From contig JAABSZ010000002.1 of assembly GCA_011390135.1 (NCBI GenBank), positions 3,039 to 67,038 on the forward strand: a DNA stretch of 64,000 nucleotides. The letters are read 5' to 3'. The DNA is from Desulfobacteraceae bacterium (GTDB lineage Bacteria > Desulfobacterota > Desulfobacteria > Desulfobacterales > JAABSP01). A model generated the notes under the pieces. That model was not told the DNA's origin. It was given only the letters and a program-made list of their open reading frames with translations, and did no database searches. The first letter of the stretch is position 1. Each line of letters begins with the position of its first letter. Of the stretch, positions 541-17,073 are shown piece by piece. Both the position numbers and the translations under genes were made by a program.

Positions 541-3201
541 ATGAATCTCAAAACTATCAAAGGAAAGCTCACCGCGGGTTTTGCTCTCATGCTGATTCTT
601 CTGGCCGTGGTATCGGTCATCAGTATTTTCATGCTCTCGAACATGAACAATCGGATCAACAACATTGTCGATCGATCGGCCGAGAAGATGAAACTGGCCG
701 CGCGCATCAATCAGGATCTCATCGATATCTCCCGGGGAGAGAAGAATCTGATCCTGGCCGATGATGAGCAGAAGATGGCCGATTCAGCAGCATTTATTCA
801 ACAGACCCGAGATGAGATGAGGGCGCGCCTCCAGGGGCTTCGGGATCTTTCCGATCAGCAGGAGAAGGCTCAGCTCGAAGAATTCTCCCGGCTCTGGAAC
901 GCCTATCTGGAGACCGGCAAGCAGGTCATCGCTTTGGCTCAATTGAATTCCAATGTAGAGGCCAATGCCCTGTCCGACAATGCCGGAGCGGCCGCCTTCA
1001 ACCAGAGCGAAAGGGGATTGCGTCAGTTGATGGCGGAGCTGGAGAAGAAGTATGAAAAAGCGCTCCCTCAAAAGGCGCGGTTTCAGGAGGCGCGTCGGGC
1101 CGGGGAGAGGTTGATTGCCGATCTTTTACAGCTTCAGCGTGCGGAAAAAGAGATGCTGCTGAACAGGGAGGCCCCAACCGCAAATGAAGATCGACAGCGG
1201 TTTGGCTATGGCCGGAACCAGGGCGAAAGCTTCGATCTTTTTCTGCAGAATCACCGCGGATATCTCGAAGCCATTGACAAGGAATTGAATGCGCTTTCCG
1301 CGCTTTTCACTGCTGACGAGGATACAAAAAGAAGTCCTGTCGGCACTCTCATGGGGCCGGTAAAAGATGCTCTTCAGCGGCTGGAGCAGGGAACCGGAAC
1401 CGTTGCCGGCCTTCTTCTGAGAGGAGAGATCGATCGGGCTGTGGAACTTTCCGGGCAGAGTGTGGCCGCGGATTACAGGGCCGCGGAGAGTGCGATGCAG
1501 GAGCTGATTGCCGAATTGACCCGGCAAAGAGATGAGGCCGATCATGTTGCTCTGCTGGCAGACGATCTCCTCAAAGAGACGGGAATGATCCTTGCGCGGA
1601 TCTTTTCGATTCACAGGGATGAAAAAGGATTGATTCTGGATAAGAAGATCGAGAGTATGGAGCTGTATGCGGCATCGATTCAGGGATCGGTTTCTGAAAT
1701 CGAGAAGCGTGTGGAGGCCATCGAGGATGCCCAAGATCCCTCTCTTCGTCCCCATCTGTCCCGGTTTGACAAAGCCTGGAAGGAATTTCTTGCCATCGAT
1801 CAGAAGGTCATCGAGTTGAGCCTGGAGAACGGAAATCAGCGGGCCTATACCCTCTCCTCCGAAACCGGCGAATCCCAGATGGCCAGTGCCCGGGATGTGA
1901 TGAGGGGGATTCTGGAGAAGAGCGAGGCAAAGATGGCCCAGGACGCGCTGGAGACCGATGAGGCATACCAATTCTCCTTCTGGCTCAACCTCATCCTTTT
2001 GGTTTTGGCTGTGGCCGTCGGCATCTTCATCGCCTATCGCATCATCCGGGGCATCGAAACAGGGCTTTCAAATGCCATGAGCATCTCAAACGCTCTTGCC
2101 GAGGGGAATCTGACAGTCGATATCGATATTGAAGGGGAGGATGAGATCTCCTCGCTGCTGCATGCGATGCAGCGGATGGTTGCGCGGCTGAAAGAGATTG
2201 TCGCAGAGATTGCCCGGGCTGCGGAGAATGTGGCTTCGGGCAGTCAGCAGATGAGTTCCAGCGCAGAGGAATTGAGCACCACTGCGCAGCAGATGTCCGA
2301 AGGGGCATCGGAACAGGCCGCCTCGATCGAGCAGGTCTCCTCTTCAATGGAGGAGATGACGGCCAATATCCAGCAGAATGCCGACAATGCGCTGCAGACC
2401 GAAAAGATCGCTGCCAAATCCGCGCAGGGGGCCGAGGAGGGCGGAAAGTCGGTGAACCACACGGTGAAGACCATGCAGGACATCGCCGGCCGGATCACCA
2501 TCATCGAGGAGATCGCGCGTCAGACCGATCTGCTCGCGCTGAACGCGGCCATCGAGGCCGCCAGGGCCGGGGATCATGGCAAGGGATTTGCGGTGGTGGC
2601 CTCAGAGGTGCGAAAGCTCTCGGAGCGGAGCCAGCGGGCCGCGGCCGAGATCATCGAATTGGCCGGCAGCAGCGTCGAGATTGCGGAAAAATCGGGCGAA
2701 AAGCTTGCATCGCTGGTGCCGGATATCCGGCGGACCTCGGAGCTGGTGCAGGAGATCTCCGCGGCCAGCAACGAGCAGAGCAGCGGCGCTGAGCAGGTCA
2801 ACCTGGCCCTGCAGCAGCTCGACGAGGTGATTCAGCAGAATGCCACCGCGTCCCAGGATGTGGCCTCCACCGCGGAGGAGATGGCCGCGACCTCCGAGGA
2901 GCTTTCGGGGCAGTCGGAATCCCTGCGCAGCAGCATCGCGTACTTCAAGCTGGAGCAGAAGGATCGCTCTGTTGGTTCCGGGCTGCAGAGTGTCCGGCCT
3001 TCCAGGGAGGCGAAAAAGGGGCATATCGCTGTGCCCGGGGCGCCAAAAGCGCCGCAGAGAAAGGAAAAGCTCCGGAAGACCGGGAAAAAGGAGCCCTCCC
3101 GGGAGCTGAGTTTCGATGTTTCCGGAGAGGAGAAAACGGAATACGACGATATTGCGAAAGGGGAAGAGGATGTCCGGGATGGGGATTTTGAGAAGTATTG
3201 A
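541..3201 (+). CDS. Methyl-accepting chemotaxis protein with a very long helical periplasmic domain, HAMP, MCP signalling domain and a long C-terminal tail
   Basis: 886 aa. TM1 is around residues 13-32 and TM2 around 478-500. The tip motif [41 protein letters not shown] is present. AAGGAG RBS at 527..532. Confidence 0.9.
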
Positions 3202-3260: not shown

Positions 3261-4565
3261 TCAGTCGGGTGATGGTTTTTCCGGGGGCCGATACCGCAGG
3301 TCCTGCTTGATTAGGGATTCGAGGGTCGCGTCCAGAAAGGGCTTCATGCAGTCCCGCCCGATTCGGCCATCGCGGAAGTAGGCCATCTGGCGGCAGCCGC
3401 CGAAGCACTGGGGGAGATAGGGGCAGGCCAGGCACTCCTTGTTCTTCCAGATCTCCAATCCATGGGAACGGGCAGCCTTCTGAGGGTCGAGACCGGTATT
3501 CACATGACCTACGGCAAATTCCTCGATACCGATGAGCGCGGGGCATTTGTAGACGGCCCCGTCCCAGTGGACCACGAAGAGGTCGTCGGTCTCGATCATG
3601 CAGTGGAGGGGGCCGGGTTTGGGGGTGTAATAGCCCCGGGAGAGAACCACCTCCCGAAGCGTCAATATAGGATGAATCAGCCAAGACTCATTGAAGGAAC
3701 TGCAGCCGGTATTGCTTACGGGTTCAAAGCTGACCGGCATGAATCGGAGAGAATCGATCCGGTCTGGGGTGAGGCCAGCCTTTTCCAGCTCGTCGAGCAG
3801 GGGTAGGAAATCCATGTAGTTTTTCTGCAGAAAATTTCCGCTGATTCCTATTCGGATGAGATCGCAGACTGCGGCCGCATTTCCAATCACCCGTTCAAAG
3901 CTGCCAGTCCCATTTGCAAAGGGCCGGCTGCGGTCGTGGATCGTTTTTGGGCCATCAAGGGTGATCGCAGCAAGGGTCAGACCAAAAGGGAGCAGGAATT
4001 CGACCGTATTTCGGGTCAGAAGAGAGCCATTGGTGGTCAATATCGCATCGTACTGGGCACCTTTCCCTTCGGCAAAGGATTTGAGCCTTTCGGAGATGTA
4101 GCGGATCAGATCTGTTTTCAGCAGGGGCTCTCCGCCGTAAAAGTTGACAGTCAGGTGCTCTTTGGGTACTGCAAATTGATCCCACTGGGCCTTTACGAAC
4201 CGGATCAGTTCCTCTGCAGTCTGTTGGGACATGTGCTGATGGGACTTAATACGGTTTTCAAAACAGTAGGTGCAGGCGAAGTTGCAGTCCAGGGTCAGCA
4301 CCGCGGTGATATCGAACTTCTTCGATCTCGCGTTCCGCTTTTTGAAGCCGTCGAGCATCTCCTGTTGTTCGGCCTTTTTATCCTGCGTGATGAGCTTCAG
4401 ATCGGAGAAGAGTTTTTCCTGGTCCGGTGTGAGGCGGCCGGCCTCGATATCCGGGATCATGGCCGCCGGAACCCGTACCACGGACGCCTTTAGGGTGGAA
4501 TAAAGGATACGGTGATCAAGCTTCTCATCGCAGGGGTAGATCTTCGTGTAAGTGGATATCGGCAT
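3261..4565 (-). CDS. Radical SAM / SPASM-domain peptide-modifying enzyme (maturase-like)
   Basis: 434 aa. CNFACTYC (CxxxCxxC) lies about residue 95. The C-terminal CLACPYLPQCFGGC matches Cx2Cx5Cx3C, with further upstream Cys residues (CSSF, HCMIE, YKCP). The N-terminal ~90 aa resemble the substrate-recognition region of SPASM maturases. Confidence 0.85.
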   Translation of the reverse strand: MPISTYTKIYPCDEKLDHRILYSTLKASVVRVPAAMIPDIEAGRLTPDQEKLFSDLKLITQDKKAEQQEMLDGFKKRNARSKKFDITAVLTLDCNFACTYCFENRIKSHQHMSQQTAEELIRFVKAQWDQFAVPKEHLTVNFYGGEPLLKTDLIRYISERLKSFAEGKGAQYDAILTTNGSLLTRNTVEFLLPFGLTLAAITLDGPKTIHDRSRPFANGTGSFERVIGNAAAVCDLIRIGISGNFLQKNYMDFLPLLDELEKAGLTPDRIDSLRFMPVSFEPVSNTGCSSFNESWLIHPILTLREVVLSRGYYTPKPGPLHCMIETDDLFVVHWDGAVYKCPALIGIEEFAVGHVNTGLDPQKAARSHGLEIWKNKECLACPYLPQCFGGCRQMAYFRDGRIGRDCMKPFLDATLESLIKQDLRYRPPEKPSPD

Positions 4566-4579
4566 AGAGAAATGGCCGG

Positions 4580-4606
4580 GGGAGGGACGGATGATCCGCC
4601 CCTCCC
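4580..4606 (-). promoter_or_regulatory. GC-rich stem-loop between the small peptide ORF and the rSAM gene
   Basis: Plus strand reads gggagggacgg-atgat-ccgcccctccc: an 11-bp stem with one A.C mismatch and a 5-nt loop. It sits in the 48-nt gap between stop 4614 and start 4565. Confidence 0.4.
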
Positions 4607-4613
4607 TTTAAAG

Positions 4614-4757
4614 TCAAGGTTTTGGCTTTGGCTCCGGCTCCGGCGCTTTGGTAAAAGGTACTGGATCAATTAAACAGCACCCCTCTACATTGTTCCCTTC
4701 GATCCCCCTGTCGAGGATCTCCACTGAAGAATCGCTCTGCTTTTCATCTTTTTCCAT
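4614..4757 (-). CDS. Unannotated 47-aa peptide, candidate RiPP precursor (acidic leader, Cys-Cys core, Pro-rich EP/KP tail)
   Basis: Hand translation: MEKDEKQSDSSVEILDRGIEGNNVEGCCLIDPVPFTKAPEPEPKPKP*. AAGGAAAG RBS lies about 6 nt upstream. It starts 24 nt after the TonB-receptor stop and ends 48 nt before the rSAM start, on the same strand. It is too short for the ORF track. Confidence 0.5.
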   Translation of the reverse strand: MEKDEKQSDSSVEILDRGIEGNNVEGCCLIDPVPFTKAPEPEPKPKP

Positions 4758-4781
4758 AGGGCTTTCCTTACTTTACTGGGT

Positions 4782-6731
4782 TTAGAAGTGGAAGCGTATC
4801 CCCGCCTCCATCCACCGTTTCGGATTATCGTAATAGTCAAAATCATAGGAAGATCCGTCGAACATGTTATGGATGGTTGCGAAGAGGTCGGCATTGATTT
4901 CTCCGATGCTGACGTTTCGGCGCAGATTGAGATCCCATATGGGGTCATCATAGCTCGCATTTGACGAGGAGGGCTCATCCCACCAGGTATAGATCCCTGC
5001 CAGACGGAGGCTTATGATCTTCGGGTTATTATATCGAAGCCCTGCAACCCATTTGTACTTCTTTTCATCATTTTCCTCCTGCGCCTGATTATCCGTAATG
5101 ACATAGGAGAATCCGCCGAAGAAAGAAAAGTCATGGATTGGCAGGGTCTCCATCTCGATCTCAAATCCCCGTCGTCGATCTTCGTTCTTATTCAGCATGA
5201 TCGTGTTTCCTGGAGGACCTTCAGCATAGAGTTCTCTGGAAAGAATATCTTCGATTTCATGCTGAAAGAGATTGATTCTGGCCCACAGATAGGGAATGGC
5301 ACTTGTCTCCGCGCCGAGCTGATATGACCAGATCTTTTCGTAATCCAGATCTGGATTCGGGGCCAGAAGAAAGCCACCCATTTTGACCAAACCGATGCCG
5401 GGTGCGGAGAAGCCCCTTGATGCAGCCGCTCTGAAGAGGATCTCTTTCCAATGACAGGTCAGATCAAGACTGGGGCTGATGAATCCGCCTATGAATTCGT
5501 GGTGATCGTAGCGGATTCCGGGAGTAATGGCAAAATTTCCCAGCGTTACCGTATCGTTGAGATAGAGAGCCCACAGATTCCGTTTTGAATCGGATTCCAT
5601 CTTCGGCGGTGCTCCATATCCCTGGTACAGGGGACCGTATGCGTTTACCCTTTCCATATCGGCACGGTTCCCATCCGCGCCCAGCACCAGCCGATGGATT
5701 TCGTTCTCCCATGTCAGATTTCCGGCAAATCCAAAAATTCGCTGATCACCCCCGGTGTTCAACAGGAGTTCCGGTCTATCCGAATAAATGCCAGCTCCCA
5801 GAGTGCTGGTATTTGTATTGTATTTCTGCCGGAATCCATAGAGGGAAAGAAAGAACGCCATCCTCTCTGAAAGGCTGGTATTGAAGTCAATGGCGCCCCA
5901 GACTGTCCTGTCCTGAATATCAGAAACCATATCCCCTTCCGTATATTCCCCCAAATCATTCCAGGGCTCACTGTAGCCGAAGGTAATGCCCATCGCTGTG
6001 CGTTCCCACAGAGGGATGCGCAGCTTTGAAAAGAGACTGCTGTTTTCATACTCCCGCGTGGGCTCCAGCCCGTCGGATTCCTGATGGTCTGCAAAGAGAT
6101 AGTAGCCGGTATTCCCTGCCTTACCAGAGATCTCCCCCTGGTAGTTTTGAGATGCGGCCTCGCCATAGGAAGCTTGAAGCATTCCTATCGGCTTTTGCGT
6201 ATGGCCTGCGGACTTGGTGATGACGTTGATGACGCCGCCCAGAGAAGAACCCCATGATGAAGATGCAGGCCCTTTGACGATCTCGATCCGCTCCACCGCA
6301 CCGACGGGTATCGACTGGATTGCGGGTTCTCCGGAGTAAACCGAGTTCCAGGGGATGTTATCCACATAGACCTGTATGTGTCGAAGCTCGGAGCCTTGAA
6401 TGTACGGCAGGGAAATTGCTCCGAAATCCTGATTGCTGGAGATAAAGATCCCTGGAACCTGCCGGAGCACCTCTCCCAGCGTGTGCGCGTTCATGGCCCG
6501 GATCTCGGCTGCATTGATCACAGTGATGTTCTCCGCAACCTGGGAGATGGGCTTGAGAGACCGCGTCGCGCTGATCACCTGCAGCTCCTCGGGCCGGTAG
6601 TAGAGGGAGAGAATGGCCATCTCCTCTTCGGTCTGGGATTGTGCCGCGGAAAAAGGAAAAAGAAGCAGCAGCATGGAAACGATGGCGGACAATCGGCGGG
6701 AAAAGAATTTTGGAAACATCTTTGAACTCAC
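4782..6731 (-). CDS. TonB-dependent outer-membrane receptor (plug plus beta-barrel)
   Basis: 649 aa. Signal peptide ...LLLLFPFSAAQSQ. Plug region ELQVISATRS...NITVINAAEI...LGEVLRQVPGI. IEIVKGPASSSWGSSLGGVINVITK motif. C-terminal ...GIRFHF ends in the terminal aromatic typical of OM barrels. Confidence 0.85.
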   Translation of the reverse strand: MSSKMFPKFFSRRLSAIVSMLLLLFPFSAAQSQTEEEMAILSLYYRPEELQVISATRSLKPISQVAENITVINAAEIRAMNAHTLGEVLRQVPGIFISSNQDFGAISLPYIQGSELRHIQVYVDNIPWNSVYSGEPAIQSIPVGAVERIEIVKGPASSSWGSSLGGVINVITKSAGHTQKPIGMLQASYGEAASQNYQGEISGKAGNTGYYLFADHQESDGLEPTREYENSSLFSKLRIPLWERTAMGITFGYSEPWNDLGEYTEGDMVSDIQDRTVWGAIDFNTSLSERMAFFLSLYGFRQKYNTNTSTLGAGIYSDRPELLLNTGGDQRIFGFAGNLTWENEIHRLVLGADGNRADMERVNAYGPLYQGYGAPPKMESDSKRNLWALYLNDTVTLGNFAITPGIRYDHHEFIGGFISPSLDLTCHWKEILFRAAASRGFSAPGIGLVKMGGFLLAPNPDLDYEKIWSYQLGAETSAIPYLWARINLFQHEIEDILSRELYAEGPPGNTIMLNKNEDRRRGFEIEMETLPIHDFSFFGGFSYVITDNQAQEENDEKKYKWVAGLRYNNPKIISLRLAGIYTWWDEPSSSNASYDDPIWDLNLRRNVSIGEINADLFATIHNMFDGSSYDFDYYDNPKRWMEAGIRFHF

Positions 6732-7094
6732 TTTACAAAATAAAAGCGGGGTTTAAGGATAAATGCATCGCATCGGGAAGCGTTTTGGAAAAGCCCGTTC
6801 CGACACCAGACAAGGCGAGTCTCCTCCGCAAACGAGGAATTCAAAGATATCACACCCCTTTTCCTCGTGCAAGTCAAAAAAAACCTCTTCTCTCCCCTTC
6901 CCTTTTCTTCACTTTTCCTGTAGACTTTTTGTGCAGATTTCTGATAAGAAACAAAAGCGGCAGAGGGTTAAAAATGCGGCATCTGTTTTTTCCGAATATA
7001 TTTCCCTGGCTTTCATCTGAGACGCTATGAAGGTTGGTCCATATTCCCATTATCGCCGAAACGGCAGGAGCCGGCGACAGAGAAACCTTTCCCT

Positions 7095-7994
7095 ATGAAA
7101 CGGCTTCTCCTCTTATTCCTCCTGCTGCTGAATATTTCCCTGCCGGCTCAGGCCTCCAGCCTGGTGGCGGTGGTGGAAAGCATCAGGATTCCGCCCTACG
7201 AGGCCGCGATCGACGGATTCGGCCAAGCCTGCAGTTGCACCACAAAACGGTTTCTGATCTCGGAACTGGGAGAGGAGGCTCTCCTATCCCTTATCGAGGA
7301 AGAGAAACCCCGACTGATACTGGCTGTGGGAAACGAGGCACTGGGCAAGGTACTCTCCGTCACCCATATTCCCATCGTCTATCTCATGGTCTTCAACCCC
7401 TGGGATATCGTCGAAGACCAGGAAAACATCTCCGGCGTCAGCATGAACATTCCGCAGAAAAAGCAGTTGGAGATTCTCATTACAGCCGCGCCCGATGTAG
7501 AGCGGGTCGGATTTCTCTACAATCCGGATCGAAACCGGATTTTTGCAGAAAAGGCCAAGGCAGCGGCCGATGAACTGGGGGTTCAACTCCTCTCTGTGGC
7601 CGTTCATAAATCCGCGGACATGGCCCAAAGGCTCAAAGAGATCGTCAAAGAGATTGACGGGTTCTGGATGATCCCCGACATCATCGTCTATACCCCCGAG
7701 ACGATCCAGCACCTGCTGCAGGTCTCGCTGGAGAACCGTTTTCCGGTACTCTCTTTTTCAGAAAAGTATCTTGATATGGGGGCATTTCTTTCCGTCACCT
7801 TTGATCCGGAGGATTTAGGCCGGCAGGCCGGGGAGATGGCCCAAAAGATTCTAAAGGGGACCTCGGGGCGGCGGGTGATGAACACGGAGGCGAGAAAGCC
7901 GGTGATTCAGATCAACAAGACCGTGGGGAAGCGTCTGAGGATCGAGTCCGATCTCGATGCCGCAGAGATGACCCTTCTGGAAATGGGGAAATAG
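7095..7994 (+). CDS. Periplasmic ABC-type substrate-binding protein (PF04392-like), probably a co-sensor for the downstream kinase
   Basis: 299 aa with a signal peptide. The pattern IPIVYLMVFNPWDIV...ISGVS...KKQLEILITAAPDVERVGFLYNP...GRQAGEMAQKILKG resembles the ABC_sub_bind family. Confidence 0.7.
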   Translation: MKRLLLLFLLLLNISLPAQASSLVAVVESIRIPPYEAAIDGFGQACSCTTKRFLISELGEEALLSLIEEEKPRLILAVGNEALGKVLSVTHIPIVYLMVFNPWDIVEDQENISGVSMNIPQKKQLEILITAAPDVERVGFLYNPDRNRIFAEKAKAAADELGVQLLSVAVHKSADMAQRLKEIVKEIDGFWMIPDIIVYTPETIQHLLQVSLENRFPVLSFSEKYLDMGAFLSVTFDPEDLGRQAGEMAQKILKGTSGRRVMNTEARKPVIQINKTVGKRLRIESDLDAAEMTLLEMGK

Positions 7995-8007: not shown

Positions 8008-11000
8008 ATGCTGCTTCAAACCATCAGACAGAGCTTTTTTCTGAAGATGCTTCTGGCTTTCACCCTCTTTACGCTGCTGGTGAGCACTTTTTTCACCCTC
8101 TTCTTCATCCATCACCAGTACAGACTCCTCACCCGGATGCAGATGGAAAACGGAAGGGTGCTTGCTGAAATCATCGCAAGAAATGTAACCCTCGGGGTGA
8201 TGTCCGAAAGCACAGAACTGCTCTCCGATGCGGTCTGGAGCGCATTTGAAAAGGAGGATGTGGTTCAGGTCTTTGTCTATAATCAGGAGGCCCGCCTGCT
8301 GATGGGGTCGAATCGAAATGCCCTTTATCCTGAAGATTCGCCTGCTGCCCCTTCCCGGGAAGAGATCAGAAAGATCATTGCAGACTTTGCCGGTTTTCCC
8401 GTTCCCCATGATCCGGAACAAGATTACCCCTTTCTCCACCAGGGCCGGAGGGATGCAGATGAATTCTGGTGCGGTGTCATCTACGCGCCGCGCTTTCGTA
8501 CCGAGGAGGCGATGGTTCTCGGCATGGATATGAGGCAGGGCCCCACCCAACAGATGGCAGGGGTCATCGGTCTGGTGATGGATCGCCAACCCCTGAAGCA
8601 AAATATCATCGACATTGCCCGTCGGGCCGGCCTGTTCGGGCTGCTATTCTGGCTAATCGGATGTTTCGTGATGTTCTTGTTCGTCCGCCGCTTCACCCGG
8701 CCTTTGAACCGGCTGATCAAAGGGGTGAGGGCCCTGGGACTGGGGCTGGATTCAGAAAAGATCCATCCGGAGACCGATGACGAGATCGGCGCGCTGGCGC
8801 TCTCCTTCAACGACATGGCCACCTCCCTCCGCTCCCGGGAGGAGGCGCTGCAGAAATCAGAGCATAAATATCGCTCTATCTTTGAAAACGCGGCCGATGG
8901 TATCTTTCAGGCGGATATCGATGGAGATCTCATCACTGCGAATCCCGCGATGGCCCGGATTTTTGATCATGAATCTGCGGAAATAATGTGCCAGGGCCGG
9001 GTCAATATCTTCTCCCTTCTCAACATGACGCATGAGCAAAACGCGGAGCTGATGAACCATCCGGGCGCGGATTTCTCCAGGGCCATCGAAATCGGCTGCC
9101 AGAACCGGTCCGGACAGGATCTCTTTCTGCTGGTTCATCTCCACACGATCGAGGAGGGCGGGAACGGGAAAAGGATTTTCGAGGGGCTGATCCGGGATGT
9201 CACGGATCAGAAGCGCTCCGAGCGCCTGAAGATCGCAAAGGAGGCGGCCGAGGCTTCAGCCGATGCCAAGAGCCGTTTTCTGGCCAACATGAGCCATGAG
9301 ATCCGCACCCCCCTCGGCGCGATTTCGGGAATGGTGATGCTGATGGGGCAGACTGAATTGACCCCGAAACAGTCCGATTATATGGAAAAGATCGAATCCT
9401 CCTCCCGACTGCTCATGCGGGTGATCAATGATGTGCTGGATATCTCGAAAATCGAGGCCGGAAAACTGGACATGGAGAAGATCCCCTTCTCCTGGTCCCT
9501 GCTGATGACAAACATCGAAGACATGTTTGCCGAAAAGGCCCGGGAAAAGAAGATCGAGCTTTCCATGGGTTGGGATAGAGAGATTCCCGAAGATCTCAAC
9601 GGGGATGCCGAGAGGATCAAACAGATTCTGATCAATCTCATCGGCAACGGACTGAAGTTCACTCCGGAGAGCGGATTTGTGAAGGTAGATGCCCATATCG
9701 CAGAAGAGACTTCAGAAGAGATCCGGATCGGTTTTGCGATCTCAGATTCCGGTATCGGAATCCCGAAGGAGAAGCTCAAGACCATCTTCGATGCCTTTAC
9801 CCAGGCAGATGATTCCATGACCCGGCGCTACGGCGGCACAGGTCTCGGCCTTTCCATCTGCCGACAGCTTGTGGAACTGATGGATGGCGACATTCAGGTC
9901 AACAGCGAGCCGGGCCGGGGAACCACTTTCTGCTTCTCTCTGCTGCTGGAAAAGGGCTGCCGGAAAATGATGGCCCCGGCCACCAGAGACGATGATCCCT
10001 CTTTTGTCGGGGCCCGGATTCTCATTGCCGAAGATCATGAGATCAATCGGGAGGTTGCGCTCTCCCTGCTGGAGCCCTTGGGAGTGACCACCGATGTCGC
10101 GGTGAATGGCCGAAAGGCATGGAACGCGGTTCAAAGCCGTCACTATGACCTGATTCTGATGGATCTGCAGATGCCGGAGATGGACGGCCTCGAGGTGACC
10201 CGAAGGATCAGAGGGCTTGAAGGAAACGCGGCAAGGATTCCCATTGTTGCGATGACCGCGCACGCCCTGAGCGAAAGCCGGCTGGCCTGCCTCGAGGCCG
10301 GGATGAATGATTTTCTGACCAAACCCCTTGATCCGACGCTTCTGATGGCGACCCTCTCCCGATGGATCGGAGCGCTGAACCGCGCGCCGGCGCAGGAGTT
10401 CCTTCAGACGCCATCGGCAGGGGATGAATCCCAAAGCCCCCTCCCCTTTTCTGAACCCGCGGCCCATTCGGATCTTTCAACAGATCTTTCGACAGAGATT
10501 TCGACAACCTCATCGAATATGGCTGTTATCGATTATGATGAAGGTGCGCTCCGGATGGGGGGAAAGCCGGAGGTCTTTGAGCGGATTCTCTTTCTGTTTC
10601 ACACCCACTATCATCAGGCCGGAGAAAAGATCGGCCAGAGCCTGGTTCATGGCCGAAGCGAGGATGCCCTGCGGCAGATTCATACCATCAAGGGGGCTGC
10701 GGGAAATTGTGCGGCTCACCAGCTTGTGGCGGCCGCAGAGCAGCTCGAGGATACGATCCGGTTTGGCCGGGATCATAACCGCGATCTCGATCGGTTTTCA
10801 GGGGAACTGGACCGGGTGATCACGGAGATCGACCAGCTCCGAAATGATTCAAGAAAAGCCAATGGAGATGGCGAACTCCCGGAAAGGAGATCCCCCCCCT
10901 CCCCCCTTCCGGAAACCTTGTCCCCGGAGATGAAAAAGATTCTCCGTTCAGAGCTTTGCTCACTGGAGGAGCTGTTGCAGAAGAACAATATCCGGGCGAT

Positions 11001-11142
11001 TCCTGAGATGGAGAGCCTTCGGGATCGGATCTGCCTGGCCGCATCTCCGGAAACCGTGAAAGCCCTGGTGTCGAACATTGAAAATCTCGATTTCACCCGA
11101 GCGGGAAAAATTCTGCAGGAGATTATTTCCGGATTGAAATAG
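8008..11142 (+). CDS. Hybrid sensor histidine kinase (TM sensor, HAMP, PAS, HisKA, HATPase, REC, HPt)
   Basis: 1044 aa. H-box FLANMSHEIRTPL. ATPase motifs GNGLKFT, DSGIGI, GGTGLGLSI. REC ILIAEDHEINREV...DLILMDLQMPEMDG. C-terminal HPt IHTIKGAAGN. Confidence 0.9.
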   Translation: MLLQTIRQSFFLKMLLAFTLFTLLVSTFFTLFFIHHQYRLLTRMQMENGRVLAEIIARNVTLGVMSESTELLSDAVWSAFEKEDVVQVFVYNQEARLLMGSNRNALYPEDSPAAPSREEIRKIIADFAGFPVPHDPEQDYPFLHQGRRDADEFWCGVIYAPRFRTEEAMVLGMDMRQGPTQQMAGVIGLVMDRQPLKQNIIDIARRAGLFGLLFWLIGCFVMFLFVRRFTRPLNRLIKGVRALGLGLDSEKIHPETDDEIGALALSFNDMATSLRSREEALQKSEHKYRSIFENAADGIFQADIDGDLITANPAMARIFDHESAEIMCQGRVNIFSLLNMTHEQNAELMNHPGADFSRAIEIGCQNRSGQDLFLLVHLHTIEEGGNGKRIFEGLIRDVTDQKRSERLKIAKEAAEASADAKSRFLANMSHEIRTPLGAISGMVMLMGQTELTPKQSDYMEKIESSSRLLMRVINDVLDISKIEAGKLDMEKIPFSWSLLMTNIEDMFAEKAREKKIELSMGWDREIPEDLNGDAERIKQILINLIGNGLKFTPESGFVKVDAHIAEETSEEIRIGFAISDSGIGIPKEKLKTIFDAFTQADDSMTRRYGGTGLGLSICRQLVELMDGDIQVNSEPGRGTTFCFSLLLEKGCRKMMAPATRDDDPSFVGARILIAEDHEINREVALSLLEPLGVTTDVAVNGRKAWNAVQSRHYDLILMDLQMPEMDGLEVTRRIRGLEGNAARIPIVAMTAHALSESRLACLEAGMNDFLTKPLDPTLLMATLSRWIGALNRAPAQEFLQTPSAGDESQSPLPFSEPAAHSDLSTDLSTEISTTSSNMAVIDYDEGALRMGGKPEVFERILFLFHTHYHQAGEKIGQSLVHGRSEDALRQIHTIKGAAGNCAAHQLVAAAEQLEDTIRFGRDHNRDLDRFSGELDRVITEIDQLRNDSRKANGDGELPERRSPPSPLPETLSPEMKKILRSELCSLEELLQKNNIRAIPEMESLRDRICLAASPETVKALVSNIENLDFTRAGKILQEIISGLK

Positions 11143-11180: not shown

Positions 11181-12371
11181 ATGAAACCTTCGCAACCGTA
11201 TCAGATCCTGATCGTCGATGACAGCCCCCACAATATCCGCGCCCTGGGAGAGATCCTGGATGAGACCTATGATGTCCGATTTGCCAAAAGCGGCCCCGAG
11301 GCCCTGGAGATCACATTCTCTGAGGAAGAGGCGATCGATCTCATTCTGCTGGATGTAATCATGCCGGAAATGGATGGGTATGAGGTCTGCCGCAGGCTCA
11401 AAGAGAATCGAAAGACCGCGGATATCCCCATCATCTTCATCACCATCAAAAGCCGCCCCTCGGACGAGGCTCTCGGCTTCTCCCTCGGCGCGGTCGATTA
11501 CCTCAACAAGCCCTTTTCCGTGGAGATCGTCCGGGCCCGGATCCGGACCCATCTCGAACTGAAGGCCCATCGGGACCGGCTTCAGGAGATGGTTCAGGAG
11601 AGGACCCTGGAGCTGGAGGAGATGAACAAACGGCTCCAGACCGAGATCATCAAGGTGAAGGCCATGCAGGAGGATCTGATCCGCTCCAAGACCCAGGCCG
11701 CGACCGGAAGGCTGGCCGCGACCATCGCGCATGAGATCAACAGCCCCCTGCAGGGAATCGCCGCGCTGCTGGTTCCTCTGATGGACGGGTGCGAGGGGCA
11801 GGAGGATCTGCTGGAGATCGCAAATCTCATCGAAGAGGCTTTCCACCGGATTCGAGAGACGGTTCAGCGGCTCTACCATCTCAATCTGCCGGCCTCCCGC
11901 CAGGAGGAGTCGGTCGATGTCAACAGCGTGATCCGGAAGACGGCCGCGCTGTTAAATGGGATGGCCAGGGAACGGAACGTGGCCGTCGATCTCGATCTGA
12001 CGCCGGATCTCCCCCGGATCAGGGCTTCCCAGGGGGAATTGGGGCAGGTCTTCATGAATCTCATCGACAATGCCCTTTCCGCGGTGCAGCACGGAAAACA
12101 GCAGGATCGAAAGGTCTCCATTCAGACCCGGCTGGTTGGGGGAGCGCTTCAGGTGCAGGTATCGGACACCGGAACCGGAATCCCGGAGGAGGATCTGCCC
12201 CACATCTTCGAGCCCTTCTACACCCGAAGAAAGGCCGGGGGGCTGGGGGTGGGGCTTTCGGTCTGTCGGGAGATCATTCGACAATGCAGCGGCGAAATCC
12301 GGGCCCAAAACGCGCCCCAAGGCCGGGGCGCGGTCTTTGCCATCACTCTTCCCGCAGCCCCGGACCGATAA
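11181..12371 (+). CDS. Response-regulator receiver fused to a histidine kinase (REC-HisKA-HATPase)
   Basis: 396 aa. ILIVDDSPHN...LDVIMPEMDG...KPF, then ATIAHEINSPL, NLIDNA, DTGTGI, GGLGVGLS. Confidence 0.85.
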   Translation: MKPSQPYQILIVDDSPHNIRALGEILDETYDVRFAKSGPEALEITFSEEEAIDLILLDVIMPEMDGYEVCRRLKENRKTADIPIIFITIKSRPSDEALGFSLGAVDYLNKPFSVEIVRARIRTHLELKAHRDRLQEMVQERTLELEEMNKRLQTEIIKVKAMQEDLIRSKTQAATGRLAATIAHEINSPLQGIAALLVPLMDGCEGQEDLLEIANLIEEAFHRIRETVQRLYHLNLPASRQEESVDVNSVIRKTAALLNGMARERNVAVDLDLTPDLPRIRASQGELGQVFMNLIDNALSAVQHGKQQDRKVSIQTRLVGGALQVQVSDTGTGIPEEDLPHIFEPFYTRRKAGGLGVGLSVCREIIRQCSGEIRAQNAPQGRGAVFAITLPAAPDR

Positions 12372-12582: not shown

Positions 12583-15500
12583 TTACTTCCCTTTTTCGGC
12601 TTGTCCCCCTCCCCTTTTCCCTTTGAAGATCCGGTCCTGAATCCGGCCCCGAATTTGGCCCATATCTTCCCGTAGTTCCGCCAGCAGCCCCCGGAGATCC
12701 TCGATGATGATGTAGAAGGCCGGCACCATCAGCAGGATGATGAAGGTGGCGAAAAGCACCCCGAAGCCGAGGCTGATGGCCATGGGGATCAGGAACCGGG
12801 CCTGGAGCGAGGTCTCGAAGATCATCGGCATCAGCCCGAAGAACGTGGTCAGGGAGGTGAGCAGGATCGGCCGGAACCGACGAATCCCGGCCGCGGCCAC
12901 GGCCTCCTTCACCGCCATTCCCCGATTCCGCATTCCGTTGGCCGCATGCACCAGCACCAGGGAATCGTTCACCACCACCCCGGACAGCGCCAGAAGCCCC
13001 ATCATGCTGATCAGGCTGAGGCTGTAGCCCATGATCATATGGCCGGCCACCGCACCGATGAATCCGAATGGGATGGCCGACAGTACCATCACCGGCTGGA
13101 TATAGCTGTTGAAGGGGATCGCGATGAGGACATACATCACCATCAGCGCGATGGCAAAGCCCTTGAAGAGGCTCCTCATCGAGTCCCGCCCCTCCCGCTC
13201 GGCCCCCTCGAGAGAGTAGTGGAGCCCCGGATACCGGTCCATCAGGGCCGGCAGTTCCCCGGCCGTCAGGGAGGCGATCACCTTTCCCCCGCCGGTCACT
13301 TTTTCTTCGATGTCGGCTGTGACATGGATGGTGCGCCGTCCATCGGTTCGGGTGATGCTGGTGTAGGAGCTGCCCCGCCGGACCTCGGCCGCGGCAGAGA
13401 GCGGGATCTCTCCGCCTTGGGGGGTGCGGATGATCAACTGCTCCACATCCTGTTCCGATGTTCGCTCGGCTTGGGGCAGCCGCACCATCACCTGGACCGT
13501 ATCCCGGCCCCGCTGCTGCCGGAGCGCCTCTGCTCCCCAGAAGGTGTAGCGGATCTGTCGCCCCAGCTCCAGGGGCGTCAGGCCCAGGCTTTCGGCCTCG
13601 GGCCGGATGGAGAGATCGAACTGGGGCTTTCCCGCGGCAAACCCGTCATCTATGTCCACCACCCCTTCGTAGGTCTGCAGGGCTGCGGCCAGGTCTTTGG
13701 CGGCCCGTTCCAGCACCTCCATATCTCGATGGCTCAACTGGACATCCACGGGGCTTCCGCCCCGGGGGCCGCCGGCCGTGGCATCGAAGATCAGCGATTC
13801 CATCTCCGGAAGCCGGCCGGCCCTTTCCCGCCACTCCCGGGCAAAGCCGGTTCCGCTGATATCCCGCTGATTCATGGGAACCAGAGAGACCATGACCGTG
13901 AGGCGGTATCCGTTGGTGATCCGGGTGTAGATCCCCTTTCCGATGGAAGGGCCGGTTGCAGGAGAATGATCTTCGATGGCTGAAAGGGCTGCGGCCTCCA
14001 GACGCCTGGCGGCCGACAAGGTCTCTTCCACGGGCGCGCCGTAGGGGAGTTCTCCGTTGGCCACGATCCAGTCCGATTCGATCTTGGGAAACATGGTGAT
14101 GCTCACCCGTCCCCCCTGGACAAAGCCGACCGCAACGATCAGCAGGGCCACCGCGATGGCACAGGTGATCCAGCGGTTCCGCACCACCCAGCCGATGGCC
14201 GGGCCGAAGATATCTTGTGCCGTATATTCGACGATCCCGGCAAACTTTCGCTGAAACCGGGCGATCGCGCCGATGATGCCGGTCTTTTTCGGCGGCCCCA
14301 GATGGCCCAGGTGGGCCGGCAGGATGTAAAGGGATTCGTAGAGGGAGATGAAGAGAACGATGATGACCACCGAGGGGAGAATCCGGAAGATTTTCCCCAT
14401 GATCCCCTCGACGAAAAAGAGAGGGGCAAAGGCGGTTGCGGTGGTGAGGATCGAGAAGATCACGGGTACGGCCACTTCCGATGCGCCGTCGATCGAGGCA
14501 TGGAGATAGCTGTTTCCGCCCCGGCTGCCGGTTTTCCCGTTGATCCCCTCCAGTGCCCTGCGGTGAACATAGACATTCTCTCCCACCACGATGGCATCAT
14601 CGACCACCATGCCCAAGGTGATGATGAATGCGAAAAGTGAGATCATATTGATGGAGACATCGGCCGCAGGCAGGAAGAGAAAGGAGCCGAGAAAGGAGAT
14701 CGGGATCCCCATCGTTACCCAGAAGGCCAGCCGCGGCTCGAGAAAGAGGCCCAGCACCCCCAGCACCAGAAAGAGGCCGATGCGGGCATTTTTCAGCAGC
14801 AGGTCGATCCGATCGTGGAATATCTCGGAACGGTCCCGGCGAATCGCGATCCCGACCCCCGGCGGCAGAGATTTTTCCAGTTCGACTGCATAGGCTTTGA
14901 CGGCCCCGGCCACCCCGAGCGGGGTCTCATCGCCGATCCGGAAGACATTGACTCCTACTGCCGGCTTTCCATTGAAAAAGCTTAAAGTATCGACATCTTC
15001 AAAAGATTCCCGCACGGTCGCGATCTCGCCTAAGCTGACCCTGGCCCCTGTCCGGGTGCTGATGATCGGGATATCGGCAAACTCCCGGGCCCAGTCTCTC
15101 CGTTCTGAGGTTCTCAGCAGGATCTCCCCGGCCTCGGTGCGGATTCGGCCGGCCGGCAGCTCCACAGCGGTTCTCCGGATCTGTTCCGCAATCCCGCCCA
15201 GAGTCAGGCCGTATCCCCGGAGCGCGGACTGGGGAACCTCCACAGCGATCTCCGGGGGTCGGATGCCTTCCAGCTCCACCTGGGTAATCGCCTCGCTCCG
15301 GAGGAGATCCTCCCGCACCGTCTCCCCCAGCTCCCGGAGGGTCCGTTCGCCTATGTCGCCGTAGATCACCAGGCTCAGCACCTCCCGCCGGGTCGAGGGA
15401 ACCCGGACCATCGGGTCCTCGGCATCCTCGGGAAAGGAGGCGATCCGGTCCACCGCATTCTTGATGTCGGCCAGCAGCTTGTTCTTGTCGACGCCGTAGA

Positions 15501-15798
15501 AGAGTTCCACATTGATGTTTCCGACGCCTTCGGATGCTGTGGCCACCACCTGCTTGACGCCGTCGATCCCCTGCACCGCCTCTTCCACTGCGGTCAGAAT
15601 TCCCTTCTCCACCTCCTCCGGGGATGCGCCGGGATAGGGAATCGAGATGATGATCAGGTCGGTTTCGAATTCGGGAAAGATCTCCTGGCGGGTCTGGGTG
15701 AGCAGGATCACCGCGCCCCCCACGATAAAGACGAGCATCATCAGGTTGGCCGCAACCGGATTGCTGGCCATCCAGACAACAGAGGAGAACCGCTTCAT
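12583..15798 (-). CDS. RND efflux transporter permease (AcrB/HAE1-like)
   Basis: 1071 aa. A 12-TM-type layout with two large periplasmic loops. Family-typical N-terminus (RFSSVVWMASNPVAANLMMLVFIVGG) and motifs such as SLFAFIITLGMVVDDAIVVGEN. Confidence 0.9.
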   Translation of the reverse strand: MKRFSSVVWMASNPVAANLMMLVFIVGGAVILLTQTRQEIFPEFETDLIIISIPYPGASPEEVEKGILTAVEEAVQGIDGVKQVVATASEGVGNINVELFYGVDKNKLLADIKNAVDRIASFPEDAEDPMVRVPSTRREVLSLVIYGDIGERTLRELGETVREDLLRSEAITQVELEGIRPPEIAVEVPQSALRGYGLTLGGIAEQIRRTAVELPAGRIRTEAGEILLRTSERRDWAREFADIPIISTRTGARVSLGEIATVRESFEDVDTLSFFNGKPAVGVNVFRIGDETPLGVAGAVKAYAVELEKSLPPGVGIAIRRDRSEIFHDRIDLLLKNARIGLFLVLGVLGLFLEPRLAFWVTMGIPISFLGSFLFLPAADVSINMISLFAFIITLGMVVDDAIVVGENVYVHRRALEGINGKTGSRGGNSYLHASIDGASEVAVPVIFSILTTATAFAPLFFVEGIMGKIFRILPSVVIIVLFISLYESLYILPAHLGHLGPPKKTGIIGAIARFQRKFAGIVEYTAQDIFGPAIGWVVRNRWITCAIAVALLIVAVGFVQGGRVSITMFPKIESDWIVANGELPYGAPVEETLSAARRLEAAALSAIEDHSPATGPSIGKGIYTRITNGYRLTVMVSLVPMNQRDISGTGFAREWRERAGRLPEMESLIFDATAGGPRGGSPVDVQLSHRDMEVLERAAKDLAAALQTYEGVVDIDDGFAAGKPQFDLSIRPEAESLGLTPLELGRQIRYTFWGAEALRQQRGRDTVQVMVRLPQAERTSEQDVEQLIIRTPQGGEIPLSAAAEVRRGSSYTSITRTDGRRTIHVTADIEEKVTGGGKVIASLTAGELPALMDRYPGLHYSLEGAEREGRDSMRSLFKGFAIALMVMYVLIAIPFNSYIQPVMVLSAIPFGFIGAVAGHMIMGYSLSLISMMGLLALSGVVVNDSLVLVHAANGMRNRGMAVKEAVAAAGIRRFRPILLTSLTTFFGLMPMIFETSLQARFLIPMAISLGFGVLFATFIILLMVPAFYIIIEDLRGLLAELREDMGQIRGRIQDRIFKGKRGGGQAEKGK

Positions 15799-15804
15799 TA
15801 GAGC

Positions 15805-17073
15805 TTATCCTTTTTCGGGATCGAGTTGGATTTCTTCGGTACGGGGAAGATCGGTATCGGGGCGGGTTCCCGCGGGAATCAGCGCCATGCCGGGAACAGG
15901 TGCTGAGATCCGGCTGGTGATGATCCTGCTCCCGGGGGAAAGCCCCCGGACCAGCAGATCGTCCTTCAGGCGCCAGACTATCTCCACTTGGGCCATGGCC
16001 AGTCTGTCATCCTCATCCAGCAGCCAGACCATGTCTCCCTCCCGGAGAGTCTGGCGGGAGATGGAGAAGACATCTTCCAATACCGGCCCTTCCACTGCCA
16101 CACGGACGTATGCCCCCAACAGGAGCGGAATCTCCTCCCTCCGGCTTTCCCGGCTTTCCTGGTTTTGATCGGCTTGATCGGTTTCAGGGGATTCCAGCCC
16201 TAATGGATCGGGAATGGCGACGAGCAGACGGGCCATCCGGCCTGCCGGGTCCAGTTCTCCCAGAAGTCGGACAACATATCCCTTTCGAACCGCAGCCGGG
16301 TCGCGGCCCCCTGTCTCCTGAAAGATCCGCGTCTCAGCCCCCTGTTTTGTATTTGAGATCGGAAGCCGAATGTAGGGGAGGCGGTCAACCGGAACCGAAA
16401 TCTGAACCCAGAACTGATTTGTTCCGGCCAGGGAGACCAGCGGTGAGGCGGGCGTAACCTGCTGGCCCAGATCGACCATTTTCTCTTTCACAAATGCGTT
16501 GAAAGGGGCTTTGATCACGGTCCGCTCCAGGTCCAGCCTGGCCTTTTTCAGTGCGCCCAATGTACCTTCCAGCGCGGCACGCGCGCTCCGGATCTGCGGT
16601 TTCCGCAGGGCAAGGGCCTTCCCCTGTGGCGTGGTGGGGATCTCCCCGGCCAGAAGCTCCCACTCCTGGGCTGCGATCGCGGCCCGTCCCTCTTCGGACC
16701 GCAGCTCCATCCGGGCTCTGGCCACATCGGCCTTACGCTGCTCCAGGGCATACTGATAATCCTTGTCGTCGATGGTCAGTATCACTTTTCCCTCCTGGAA
16801 CCGGCCTCCGGGAACCAGATCCGGATCCACCGAAACCACCTTGCCGGAAACCCGCGGTTGGAGTGTCACCTCCCGTGCCGGAATCACGGTTCCCATGGCA
16901 TCGATATAGACCTGAATATCTTCGGGGAGGGCATTTACCGTATCCACCAGCGCAGGGCCCACCGAAACCGGCTGACGCCGCGCAGTTGGTTTGGTAGCGG
17001 TCAGCCATCTGGCCGCCATAAGCCCGGCCCCGAGGATCAGCAGAACGATGACCAGCTTGTAAAAGGCTCTCAT
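15805..17073 (-). CDS. RND efflux periplasmic adaptor (membrane fusion protein)
   Basis: 422 aa. N-terminal anchor, coiled-coil hairpin region and a beta-barrel region (VIKAPFNAFV..). It lies 6 nt upstream of the RND permease, and its start overlaps the stop of the upstream OMF gene by 4 nt. Confidence 0.85.
   Translation of the reverse strand: MRAFYKLVIVLLILGAGLMAARWLTATKPTARRQPVSVGPALVDTVNALPEDIQVYIDAMGTVIPAREVTLQPRVSGKVVSVDPDLVPGGRFQEGKVILTIDDKDYQYALEQRKADVARARMELRSEEGRAAIAAQEWELLAGEIPTTPQGKALALRKPQIRSARAALEGTLGALKKARLDLERTVIKAPFNAFVKEKMVDLGQQVTPASPLVSLAGTNQFWVQISVPVDRLPYIRLPISNTKQGAETRIFQETGGRDPAAVRKGYVVRLLGELDPAGRMARLLVAIPDPLGLESPETDQADQNQESRESRREEIPLLLGAYVRVAVEGPVLEDVFSISRQTLREGDMVWLLDEDDRLAMAQVEIVWRLKDDLLVRGLSPGSRIITSRISAPVPGMALIPAGTRPDTDLPRTEEIQLDPEKG

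Follow-up and report, generated by a model that had tools for sequence, protein, structure and literature searches.

A divergent geopeptide-class RiPP locus with a TonB-dependent receptor and a proposed sensing arm in a Desulfobacteraceae bacterium

Here we describe a locus in a 64,000-nucleotide (nt) stretch of the genome of a Desulfobacteraceae bacterium (GenBank assembly GCA_011390135.1, contig JAABSZ010000002.1, positions 3,039 to 67,038; hereafter the window), in which a TonB-dependent receptor (TBDR), a short peptide with a Cys-Cys (CC) pair and a radical SAM/SPASM (rSAM) enzyme are encoded side by side. By a match above the cutoff and over its full length, the enzyme belongs to NCBIfam TIGR04280, the 'geopeptide radical SAM maturase' family. 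Taking the locus together with the binding-protein and kinase genes that diverge from it, we judge the chances evenly balanced that it is a geopeptide-class ribosomally made and post-translationally modified peptide (RiPP) system with an uptake and sensing arm of its own, whose product would be made, released, re-imported and sensed.

The three genes lie on the minus strand in the order TBDR (4782–6731, 649 amino acids (aa)), precursor peptide (4614–4757, 47 aa) and rSAM maturase (3261–4565, 434 aa), with gaps in open reading frame (ORF) coordinates of 24 nt (4758–4781) and 48 nt (4566–4613), exactly as an earlier note, made from the sequence alone, had placed them. That note had also pointed to a CxxxCxxC cluster, a SPASM motif and an N-terminal region of the leader-binding type in the enzyme, and these features held up. 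The protein matched TIGR04280 at 490.1 bits (cutoff 400, E 6e-147), with residues 1–426 aligned to profile positions 1–428 of 428. The radical SAM cluster CNFACTYC supplies C94, C98 and C101, the SPASM motif CLACPYLPQCFGGC corresponds to C378-x2-C381-x5-C387-x3-C391, and the remaining SPASM cysteines (C322-x13-G-x4-C341 and C406) complete the pattern; all of these cysteines were invariant among 25 homologues. The SPASM model TIGR04085 scored 55.5 bits against a cutoff of 27, and Pfam assigned Radical_SAM to the ORF. In an AlphaFold2 model built on the 25 homologues (mean predicted local distance difference test score (pLDDT) 88.6), the N-terminus (about residues 7–80, with a three-strand/three-helix unit at 7–71) adopts a beta-beta-beta-alpha-alpha-alpha arrangement at pLDDT >90, a predicted topology that resembles the RiPP recognition element (RRE) and suggests a domain of the leader-binding type. 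Together, the precursor peptide and an RRE-like domain fused to an rSAM/SPASM enzyme bear out the note's view of a RiPP locus.

Further comparison placed the enzyme among maturases of Cys-rich peptides, which made up its nearest NCBIfam neighbours without exception. The next-best families were CefB, TIGR04463, PapB, FlmE/OhkG, CcpM and SCIFF, all far under their cutoffs; for the thioether maturases among them, the scores were 130 against 340 bits for PapB (NF047865), 103 against 425 for SCIFF (TIGR03974) and 119 against 500 for CcpM (TIGR04068). By both sequence profile and fold, the best solved relative was the thioether-forming SCIFF maturase CteB (5wgg/5why; E 5e-33 and 3e-20). SbtM, the Geobacter selenopeptide maturase, was rejected as the identity of the enzyme, as it belongs to a different family. 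Hundreds of homologues at 43–50% identity were present in metagenomes and metagenome-assembled genomes (MAGs) from Desulfobacterales, Geobacteraceae, Desulfuromonadaceae, Desulfobulbaceae and Nitrospirae, and several of those in NCBI already carry the label 'geopeptide radical SAM maturase'. Clustering at 50% gave a few dozen clusters, the nearest representative being 48% identical to the window enzyme. A single-sequence scan of genome contigs recovered the source organism only (MAG Desulfobacteraceae S15.Bin039), and a tblastn search of plasmids returned distant SPASM maturases and no family members.

The peptide (MEKDEKQSDSSVEILDRGIEGNNVEGCCLIDPVPFTKAPEPEPKPKP; in layout form, VEILDRGIEGNNVEGCC) starts with an acidic N-terminus and continues into the leader strand VEILDRG; a shortened spacer of 8 residues then leads to Cys27-Cys28, which the core tail (LIDPVPFTKAPEPEPKPKP) follows. 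A Shine-Dalgarno sequence (AAGGAAAG) lies 6 nt 5′ of its ATG. NCBIfam and Pfam scans matched it to no curated family and a single-sequence search of 5.8 billion proteins recovered only the peptide itself, which is also called in identical form in NCBI and Logan data (P0001). The family to which it belongs surfaced only through an alignment built from uncalled ORFs, the equivalent ORF being often missed by gene finders in related loci. In all 21 related loci with sufficient upstream sequence, a CC-containing ORF lay directly upstream of the rSAM gene on the same strand. These ORFs share a layout: the N-terminus is short and often acidic, a hydrophobic strand closes with LD(E/K)G, and after 8–11 residues come the CC and a variable tail of 7–19 residues; across the window peptide and 40 relatives, the CC pair was the sole invariant feature and G18 was conserved in more than 90%. 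A profile of the ORFs retrieved 36 called peptides from the protein database, with the consensus MEnEE..VmVLDEGIEEsaENL..CC, and a leave-one-out family hidden Markov model (HMM) ranked the window peptide first of 1523 six-frame window segments.

Within this family, the window peptide falls in a CC-x5-P-[FYIM]-[RTK] subgroup (18 of the 51 distinct peptides). No other peptide in the set is as long (47 aa against a median of 36), and none has as long a tail (19 residues past the CC, Pro/Glu/Lys-rich, against a median of 10). The NCBIfam 'geopeptide' model TIGR04229, which spans 22 positions, gave weak matches (E≤1) to 26 of 41 family peptides with a best E of 1.8e-7, and the two homologues with printed scores reached 13.3 and 16.7 bits, under the 30-bit cutoff. 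With members of the geopeptide system the window peptide shares an acidic start, a VLDEG-like leader, some ten residues, CC and a tail, as well as its place directly upstream of the enzyme; it differs in its long tail and in failing to reach the model. By architecture and context, it is a divergent geopeptide, one too divergent for TIGR04229. A double-glycine cleavage motif ahead of the CC was considered and rejected, as the conserved hydrophobic positions do not fit. Separately, the stretch APEPEPKPKP in the tail (4617–4646, minus strand) resembles the proline-rich (Glu-Pro)n(Lys-Pro)n spacer found in E. coli TonB and was unseen in other family members. An atypical precursor occurs in another locus, L009 (1279–1518), where a long Lys-rich repeat leader KKKATKKKVTKKK is followed by TSTICCAGALMRI and the usual acidic VLDEG leader is missing.

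Comparison of two diverged loci revealed 21 differences in the peptide gene at third codon positions against 8 and 6 at the other two, with 14 synonymous and 9 non-synonymous codon changes; the pile-up at third positions is what a translated gene would show. The short ORF is a conserved gene and not a chance reading frame. This bears on an alternative in which the ORF is spurious and the rSAM protein is an anaerobic sulfatase maturase (anSME) or a cofactor-pathway enzyme with its substrate encoded elsewhere. Such an account could draw on anSME being the second-best structural match of the enzyme, on the window peptide matching no curated family and on gene callers having left the ORF uncalled in several loci. 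An anSME identity was rejected on a TIGR03942 score of 80.2 bits against a cutoff of 349.45, where TIGR04280 is exceeded, and on the presence of the RRE-like domain, and no sulfatase turned up among the 11 window ORFs between 541 and 21473 that were scanned with Pfam. The retention of the ORF in 21/21 loci with an invariant CC and fixed spacing, the coding-like substitution pattern and a conserved hairpin next to the gene also stand against it. We therefore regard this alternative as highly improbable and, given the conservation data, as effectively refuted.

That hairpin is GC-rich, with a 12-bp stem and a 3-nt loop (4580–4606, minus strand), and lies between the peptide stop and the rSAM start. 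Within the 57-nt intergenic stretch it folds with a minimum free energy of -24.9 kcal/mol (z = -4.9). A comparable hairpin occupied the same place in 17 of 17 loci checked, followed in most of them by a T-run that resembles an intrinsic terminator; a generic terminator scan did not report the window copy. A hairpin that lets precursor transcripts outnumber enzyme transcripts is a familiar RiPP arrangement, and we consider this one a candidate attenuator or transcript-stabilizing element that would set the precursor-to-enzyme ratio.

The TBDR has a signal peptide, an N-terminal motif (EEEMAILSLYYRPEEL), LQVISATR as its TonB box, and plug and beta-barrel regions, and its C-terminal residue is aromatic (…RFHF); Pfam detected the plug (PF07715, 4.7e-21) and the barrel. 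Among 19 family sequences from related loci, the N-terminal motif, the TonB box (VVSATR) and the C-terminus were conserved, and because of the signal peptide, TonB box, conserved motif and C-terminal aromatic residue we read the protein as an energized importer. No NCBIfam equivalog was reached (PqqU model 47 against a cutoff of 1200). Of 20 informative loci, 19 have an orthologue beside the peptide-rSAM pair, with gaps to the peptide gene of a few tens of nucleotides. In three loci (L010, L011 and L092), the TBDR gene sits instead inside an operon with a binding protein and a kinase, divergent from the peptide and enzyme genes, which ties the receptor to both arms of the system. Together, these results support the TBDR as a conserved, co-inherited partner of the geopeptide locus. 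The N-terminal motif, E-E-x3-L-x-[ML]-[FY]-[YF]-x3-[ED]-L at residues about 36–60 just before the TonB box, is present in the window protein and 18 homologues, and we did not recognize it from characterized receptors. Tandem duplicated receptor genes were seen in L087 (2038–6577) and L008 (788–4837); in L087, the spacer between the duplicates (3880–4735) holds repeated blocks, including short ORFs repeated almost verbatim.

Comparing all flanking ORFs with one another revealed a second conserved module, a putative sensor, which starts 363 nt upstream of the TBDR gene and is divergent from it. Its first gene (7095–7994, plus strand) encodes a 299-aa periplasmic solute-binding protein with a Sec signal peptide, assigned to PF04392 at 7.1e-31; the nearest NCBIfam model, TrpX, scored 73 bits against a cutoff of 390. 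No ABC permease or ATPase lies beside the binding protein in the window or in the other loci examined. The hybrid sensor histidine kinase gene (8008–11142, plus strand, 1044 aa) begins 13 nt further on, and its product comprises, by Pfam, a transmembrane segment, an extracytoplasmic domain of about 165 aa, a second transmembrane segment, HAMP, PAS, HisKA, HATPase, REC and Hpt, an architecture closest to BarA, TorS and LuxQ in NCBIfam. TorS and LuxQ are switched by the periplasmic binding proteins TorT and LuxP. By analogy, we propose that the binding protein acts as the periplasmic receptor for the imported product and that the hybrid kinase is its partner in the TorT-TorS or LuxP-LuxQ manner. 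The coupling of a periplasmic binding-protein gene to a hybrid kinase with REC and Hpt is common to all three systems; the window differs in its PF04392 protein and in a presumed ligand that would need a TBDR to reach the periplasm.

A binding-protein orthologue was found in 14 of 19 informative geopeptide loci. In the eight long-flank loci retrieved through exact-protein look-ups (L085–L092), binding protein and kinase always stand next to the TBDR, seven with the divergent layout of the window and one, L092, with the receptor in the sensor operon. L002 shows the start of the divergent layout at a contig end, and L006 and L007 have the binding protein after the enzyme. The kinase gene follows the binding-protein gene in L010, L011 and L085–L092 (cut by the locus end in L087), and the two are tightly coupled and often overlap. 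The N-terminal sensor region of the kinase was homologous in seven of nine other loci compared (E 1e-11 to 1e-32), with no match reported for L010 and L011. A third plus-strand gene (11181–12371, 396 aa), 38 nt past the hybrid kinase, encodes a REC-HisKA-HATPase protein that may be the next phosphorelay step; it is not specifically conserved, other loci having LuxR-type or sigma-54-type response regulators instead, and its membership of the system is uncertain.

The receptor and binding protein also allow an account in which the TBDR does not import the peptide. It would instead take up an unrelated substrate, such as a corrinoid or other cofactor sensed by the binding protein and kinase, leaving peptide and enzyme an intracellular or envelope role, or it would export the peptide. 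The Myxococcus Oar protein is a TBDR reportedly involved in outward transport. Several observations fit: BtuB is the receptor's best solved relative, the lack of a conserved exporter leaves a gap that outward transport would close, the window peptide has no signal sequence, and solved PF04392 proteins bind free aromatic amino acids rather than peptides. The BtuB similarity, however, is confined to the generic plug (residues 51–223), as is similarity to siderophore receptors, and Rfam detected no cobalamin or other riboswitch upstream of the TBDR. Moreover, adjacency of TBDR and peptide genes at short distance is near-universal, the conserved TonB box indicates energized inward transport, and the receptor gene swaps between the two operons and never leaves the locus. 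We consider a TBDR without a role in peptide import improbable.

In the make, release, re-import and sense circuit that we favour, the leader strand VEILDRG would dock on the RRE-like domain, and the rSAM enzyme, through a 5′-deoxyadenosyl radical and its auxiliary clusters, would modify Cys27-Cys28, the only invariant site. The likeliest chemistry, by analogy with CefB, TIGR04463, PapB, CcpM and SCIFF/CteB, would be a thioether cross-link or another cysteine-centred oxidation; an enzyme acting on a bare Cys-Cys site without a conserved partner residue may represent new chemistry. The hairpin would keep precursor transcripts above enzyme transcripts, and the product would leave through an exporter without a fixed place in the locus (half-size MFS or MacB-type transporters in relatives, an efflux pump near the window locus). 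The TBDR would then bring the product back across the outer membrane with TonB energy, and in the periplasm the binding protein, in the part that TorT plays towards TorS and LuxP towards LuxQ, would capture it and switch the hybrid kinase, which would feed a phosphorelay.

What the product would be for is a further matter. Because the core tail is hypervariable and no inner-membrane importer accompanies the binding protein, we lean towards an extracellular cue that the cell makes for itself, akin to an autoinducer and possibly specific to the strain, over a purely nutritional carrier, although the data cannot separate a signal from a metal carrier. As a broader conjecture, which we offer tentatively and would sooner expect to fail than to hold, geopeptides would be autoinducers of anaerobic Gram-negative bacteria (Desulfobacterota, Geobacter relatives and Nitrospirota), with a reception route not described before, in which an rSAM-modified Cys-Cys peptide that porins would exclude by size enters through a dedicated TBDR, is read out by a binding protein and hybrid kinase, and defines strain-specific 'pherotypes' by its hypervariable tail.

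Alternatively, and as the main rival, the product could be a chalkophore-like metallophore, a possibility that we hold in some doubt: the secreted, modified Cys-Cys peptide would capture a thiophilic metal (Cu, Ni, Co, Zn or Mo/W) in short supply in sulfidic anoxic habitats, the TBDR would import the complex, the binding protein would handle it as MbnE does, and the kinase would only adjust expression, as PfeS/PfeR does for ferric enterobactin. A TBDR within a biosynthetic locus is a hallmark of siderophore, methanobactin (mbnA/mbnT/mbnE) and pseudopaline loci, and the two cysteines are the only invariant residues of the peptide. The hosts are anaerobes (Desulfobacteraceae, Geobacteraceae, Desulfuromonadaceae and Nitrospirae), the minimal core of TBDR, peptide and enzyme lacks the sensor arm in five loci, and one locus has NosL 2 kb downstream. 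Conversely, the binding protein has no inner-membrane importer in any locus, and the upstream searches gave neither a Fur-type box nor a metal riboswitch. A pair of adjacent cysteines is by itself a weak chelator, and, should the thiols become thioethers as in the nearest relatives, their sulfurs would be poor metal ligands. Tight coupling of the binding-protein and kinase genes also fits a co-sensor better than a shuttle.

In outline, the locus shares with methanobactin operons a RiPP precursor, a TBDR and regulators dedicated to the system, and a periplasmic binding protein that lacks a permease of its own. The earlier note had reasonably drawn this analogy from peptide and importer, and the conserved binding protein, MbnE-like in role, adds a further parallel; the likeness is one of logic, drawn from established mbn knowledge, and is not a claim of orthology with MbnT or MbnE. 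The window differs in having a radical SAM/SPASM enzyme rather than MbnB/MbnC, a hybrid kinase rather than a sigma/anti-sigma pair, and a PF04392 binding protein. A methanobactin system as such was rejected, as no MbnB/MbnC was present among the Pfam-scanned ORFs and the rSAM/SPASM protein is the sole enzyme of the locus.

Several results weigh against the circuit that we favour, or against parts of it. The window peptide gave no match to TIGR04229 even at E≤10 (curated cutoff 30 bits), and its leave-one-out family HMM score was only 9.4 bits. The window hairpin has no T-run, making terminator function doubtful here. Neither an exporter nor a leader peptidase is conserved in the locus, so that secretion is an assumption. 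One locus (L014) has no TBDR in about 1 kb upstream, and five others (L003, L005, L008, L013 and L038) consist of the TBDR-peptide-rSAM core only, with housekeeping flanks and no binding protein or kinase in the available sequence. Known TBDR genes within biosynthetic loci overwhelmingly serve metallophores or cofactors, not signals. Co-inheritance, in turn, speaks for the system: pairwise identities of rSAM and TBDR correlate (rho 0.70, Mantel 0/2000), and those of the binding protein track the TBDR (rho 0.76; overall rho 0.68–0.76 for rSAM, TBDR and binding protein, Mantel 0/2000), but unrelated neighbours that are simply passed on together by vertical descent would give such correlations too.

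The metagenome scan used generic alignment patterns, and only about 11 of its 80 loci (L005–L014 and L038) were true family members. The others offer a weak control, in that TBDR and binding-protein homologues are absent from all of them; many are gut-derived, from hosts that may lack an outer membrane.

Among other systems, the ranthipeptide and sactipeptide maturases, including SCIFF/CteB and PapB, share with the window enzyme the combination of RRE, radical SAM and SPASM domains and Cys-containing substrates; they differ in that the window enzyme lies far under their cutoffs and that its presumed substrate has two adjacent cysteines and no conserved acceptor, a thioether being inferred. The pathway to pyrroloquinoline quinone (PQQ; PqqA/PqqE/PqqD, PqqU) likewise joins an rSAM/SPASM enzyme and an RRE to a peptide-derived product with a dedicated TBDR, and conservation in the precursor is limited to the reacting residues. 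PQQ, in contrast, requires a protease and several more enzymes, none of them present here, PqqE was only a distant structural match at rank 30, and the PqqU model was far from its cutoff. RiPP clusters with TonB-dependent transporters have been reported in Bacteroides, with enzymes and precursors that differ from those of the window: the itf cluster encodes the rSAM enzyme ItfD, the precursor ItfA and the TonB-dependent transporter ItfF (PMC11002830). It resembles the window locus in encoding an rSAM/SPASM-modified RiPP together with such a transporter, and differs in its YcaO-like enzyme, its C39-peptidase ABC exporter, its Trp-Ile C-C link, its unrelated precursor and its Bacteroidota hosts (PMC11002830).

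The edges of the operon were examined by comparison with a sibling strain (L001, GenBank contig JAABSP010000009.1), which differs from the window by 17 mismatches in about 6170 nt from the kinase gene to the rSAM gene. The two diverge completely inside the final ~35 nt of the rSAM gene, giving enzymes of 428 (sibling) and 434 aa (window); downstream stand a convergent chemoreceptor gene in the window and DUF3810, PHP, DnaJ-related and SelB genes in the sibling. A strain-level rearrangement has its breakpoint here, at the edge of the operon, and because the sibling diverges there, with no common downstream neighbours, we take the end of the rSAM gene as the 3′ edge. The chemoreceptor, a methyl-accepting chemotaxis protein (4HB_MCP, HAMP, MCPsignal; 541–3201, plus strand) whose gene converges on the rSAM gene, is unlikely to be part of the system because it is absent at this position in the sibling. 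On the other side, the intergenic region from which the TBDR operon and the binding-protein-kinase operon diverge (6732–7094, assigned by position only, without strand) presumably holds promoters and control sites. No convincing sigma-70 site was found in it, and a promoter and terminator scan performed no better than on shuffled sequences. Searches for sigma-54 sites and Fur boxes in 16 upstream regions gave no motif common to the loci, and Rfam scans of the window and nine loci detected tRNAs only, with no riboswitch or leader RNA.

Possible transporters were seen near several loci. A half-size major facilitator superfamily (MFS) protein (179–193 aa, PF07690) is encoded a few to ~25 nt from the rSAM stop, or overlapping it, in L002 (4274–4813), L090 (8294–8875) and L091 (8308–8868); it is a candidate exporter with no window equivalent. 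MacB-type pumps occur near L013 and L092. Just beyond the two-component genes of the window, a complete resistance-nodulation-division (RND) efflux set (12583–18473, minus strand) encodes an AcrB-like protein of 1071 aa, a membrane-fusion protein of 422 aa and an outer-membrane factor of 467 aa; it may serve for export or be a target of regulation, and is not conserved in other geopeptide loci. Selenium-related neighbours, namely a tRNA-Sec gene 23 nt past the rSAM stop in L005 (6322–6415, minus strand) and SelB about 3 kb downstream in L001 (10342–12252, minus strand), are probably a coincidence in selenoprotein-rich Desulfobacterota.

The claim of the earlier note that the enzyme had only the peptide and the TBDR as partners stands for the TBDR, conserved in 19/20 loci, and not for 'only', since the binding-protein/kinase pair had been missed. 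Nor is the family new, as that note had suggested: the enzyme exceeds the TIGR04280 cutoff, and the peptide, which the note could not place, is a geopeptide by architecture and context. That it was not placed is understandable, because it matches no curated model. The geopeptide family is itself a computational definition ('hypoth_equivalog'); our literature searches found no paper, experimental or otherwise, on the family or on the accessions TIGR04280 and TIGR04229, and in the literature searched there was no description of a family-wide link between geopeptides and a receptor with a binding-protein/kinase sensor. We therefore class the window locus as a new and divergent member of a family that has been named but not characterized.

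For the window itself the gain is modest, one divergent member of the family, and the family-wide link to a receptor and sensor is of more interest. The conserved geopeptide unit exceeds precursor and enzyme: it includes a TBDR nearly always and a binding protein in about three quarters of the informative loci, with a hybrid kinase after the binding protein wherever the flank reaches far enough. An orphan annotation thereby becomes a testable circuit of making, release, re-import and sensing. Both of the outcomes considered would be new. If the product is a signal, it would represent a route of peptide signalling in Gram-negative anaerobes, gated by an energized outer-membrane transporter; if it is a carrier, it would be a thiol-derived, radical-SAM-made metal carrier for sulfidic habitats.

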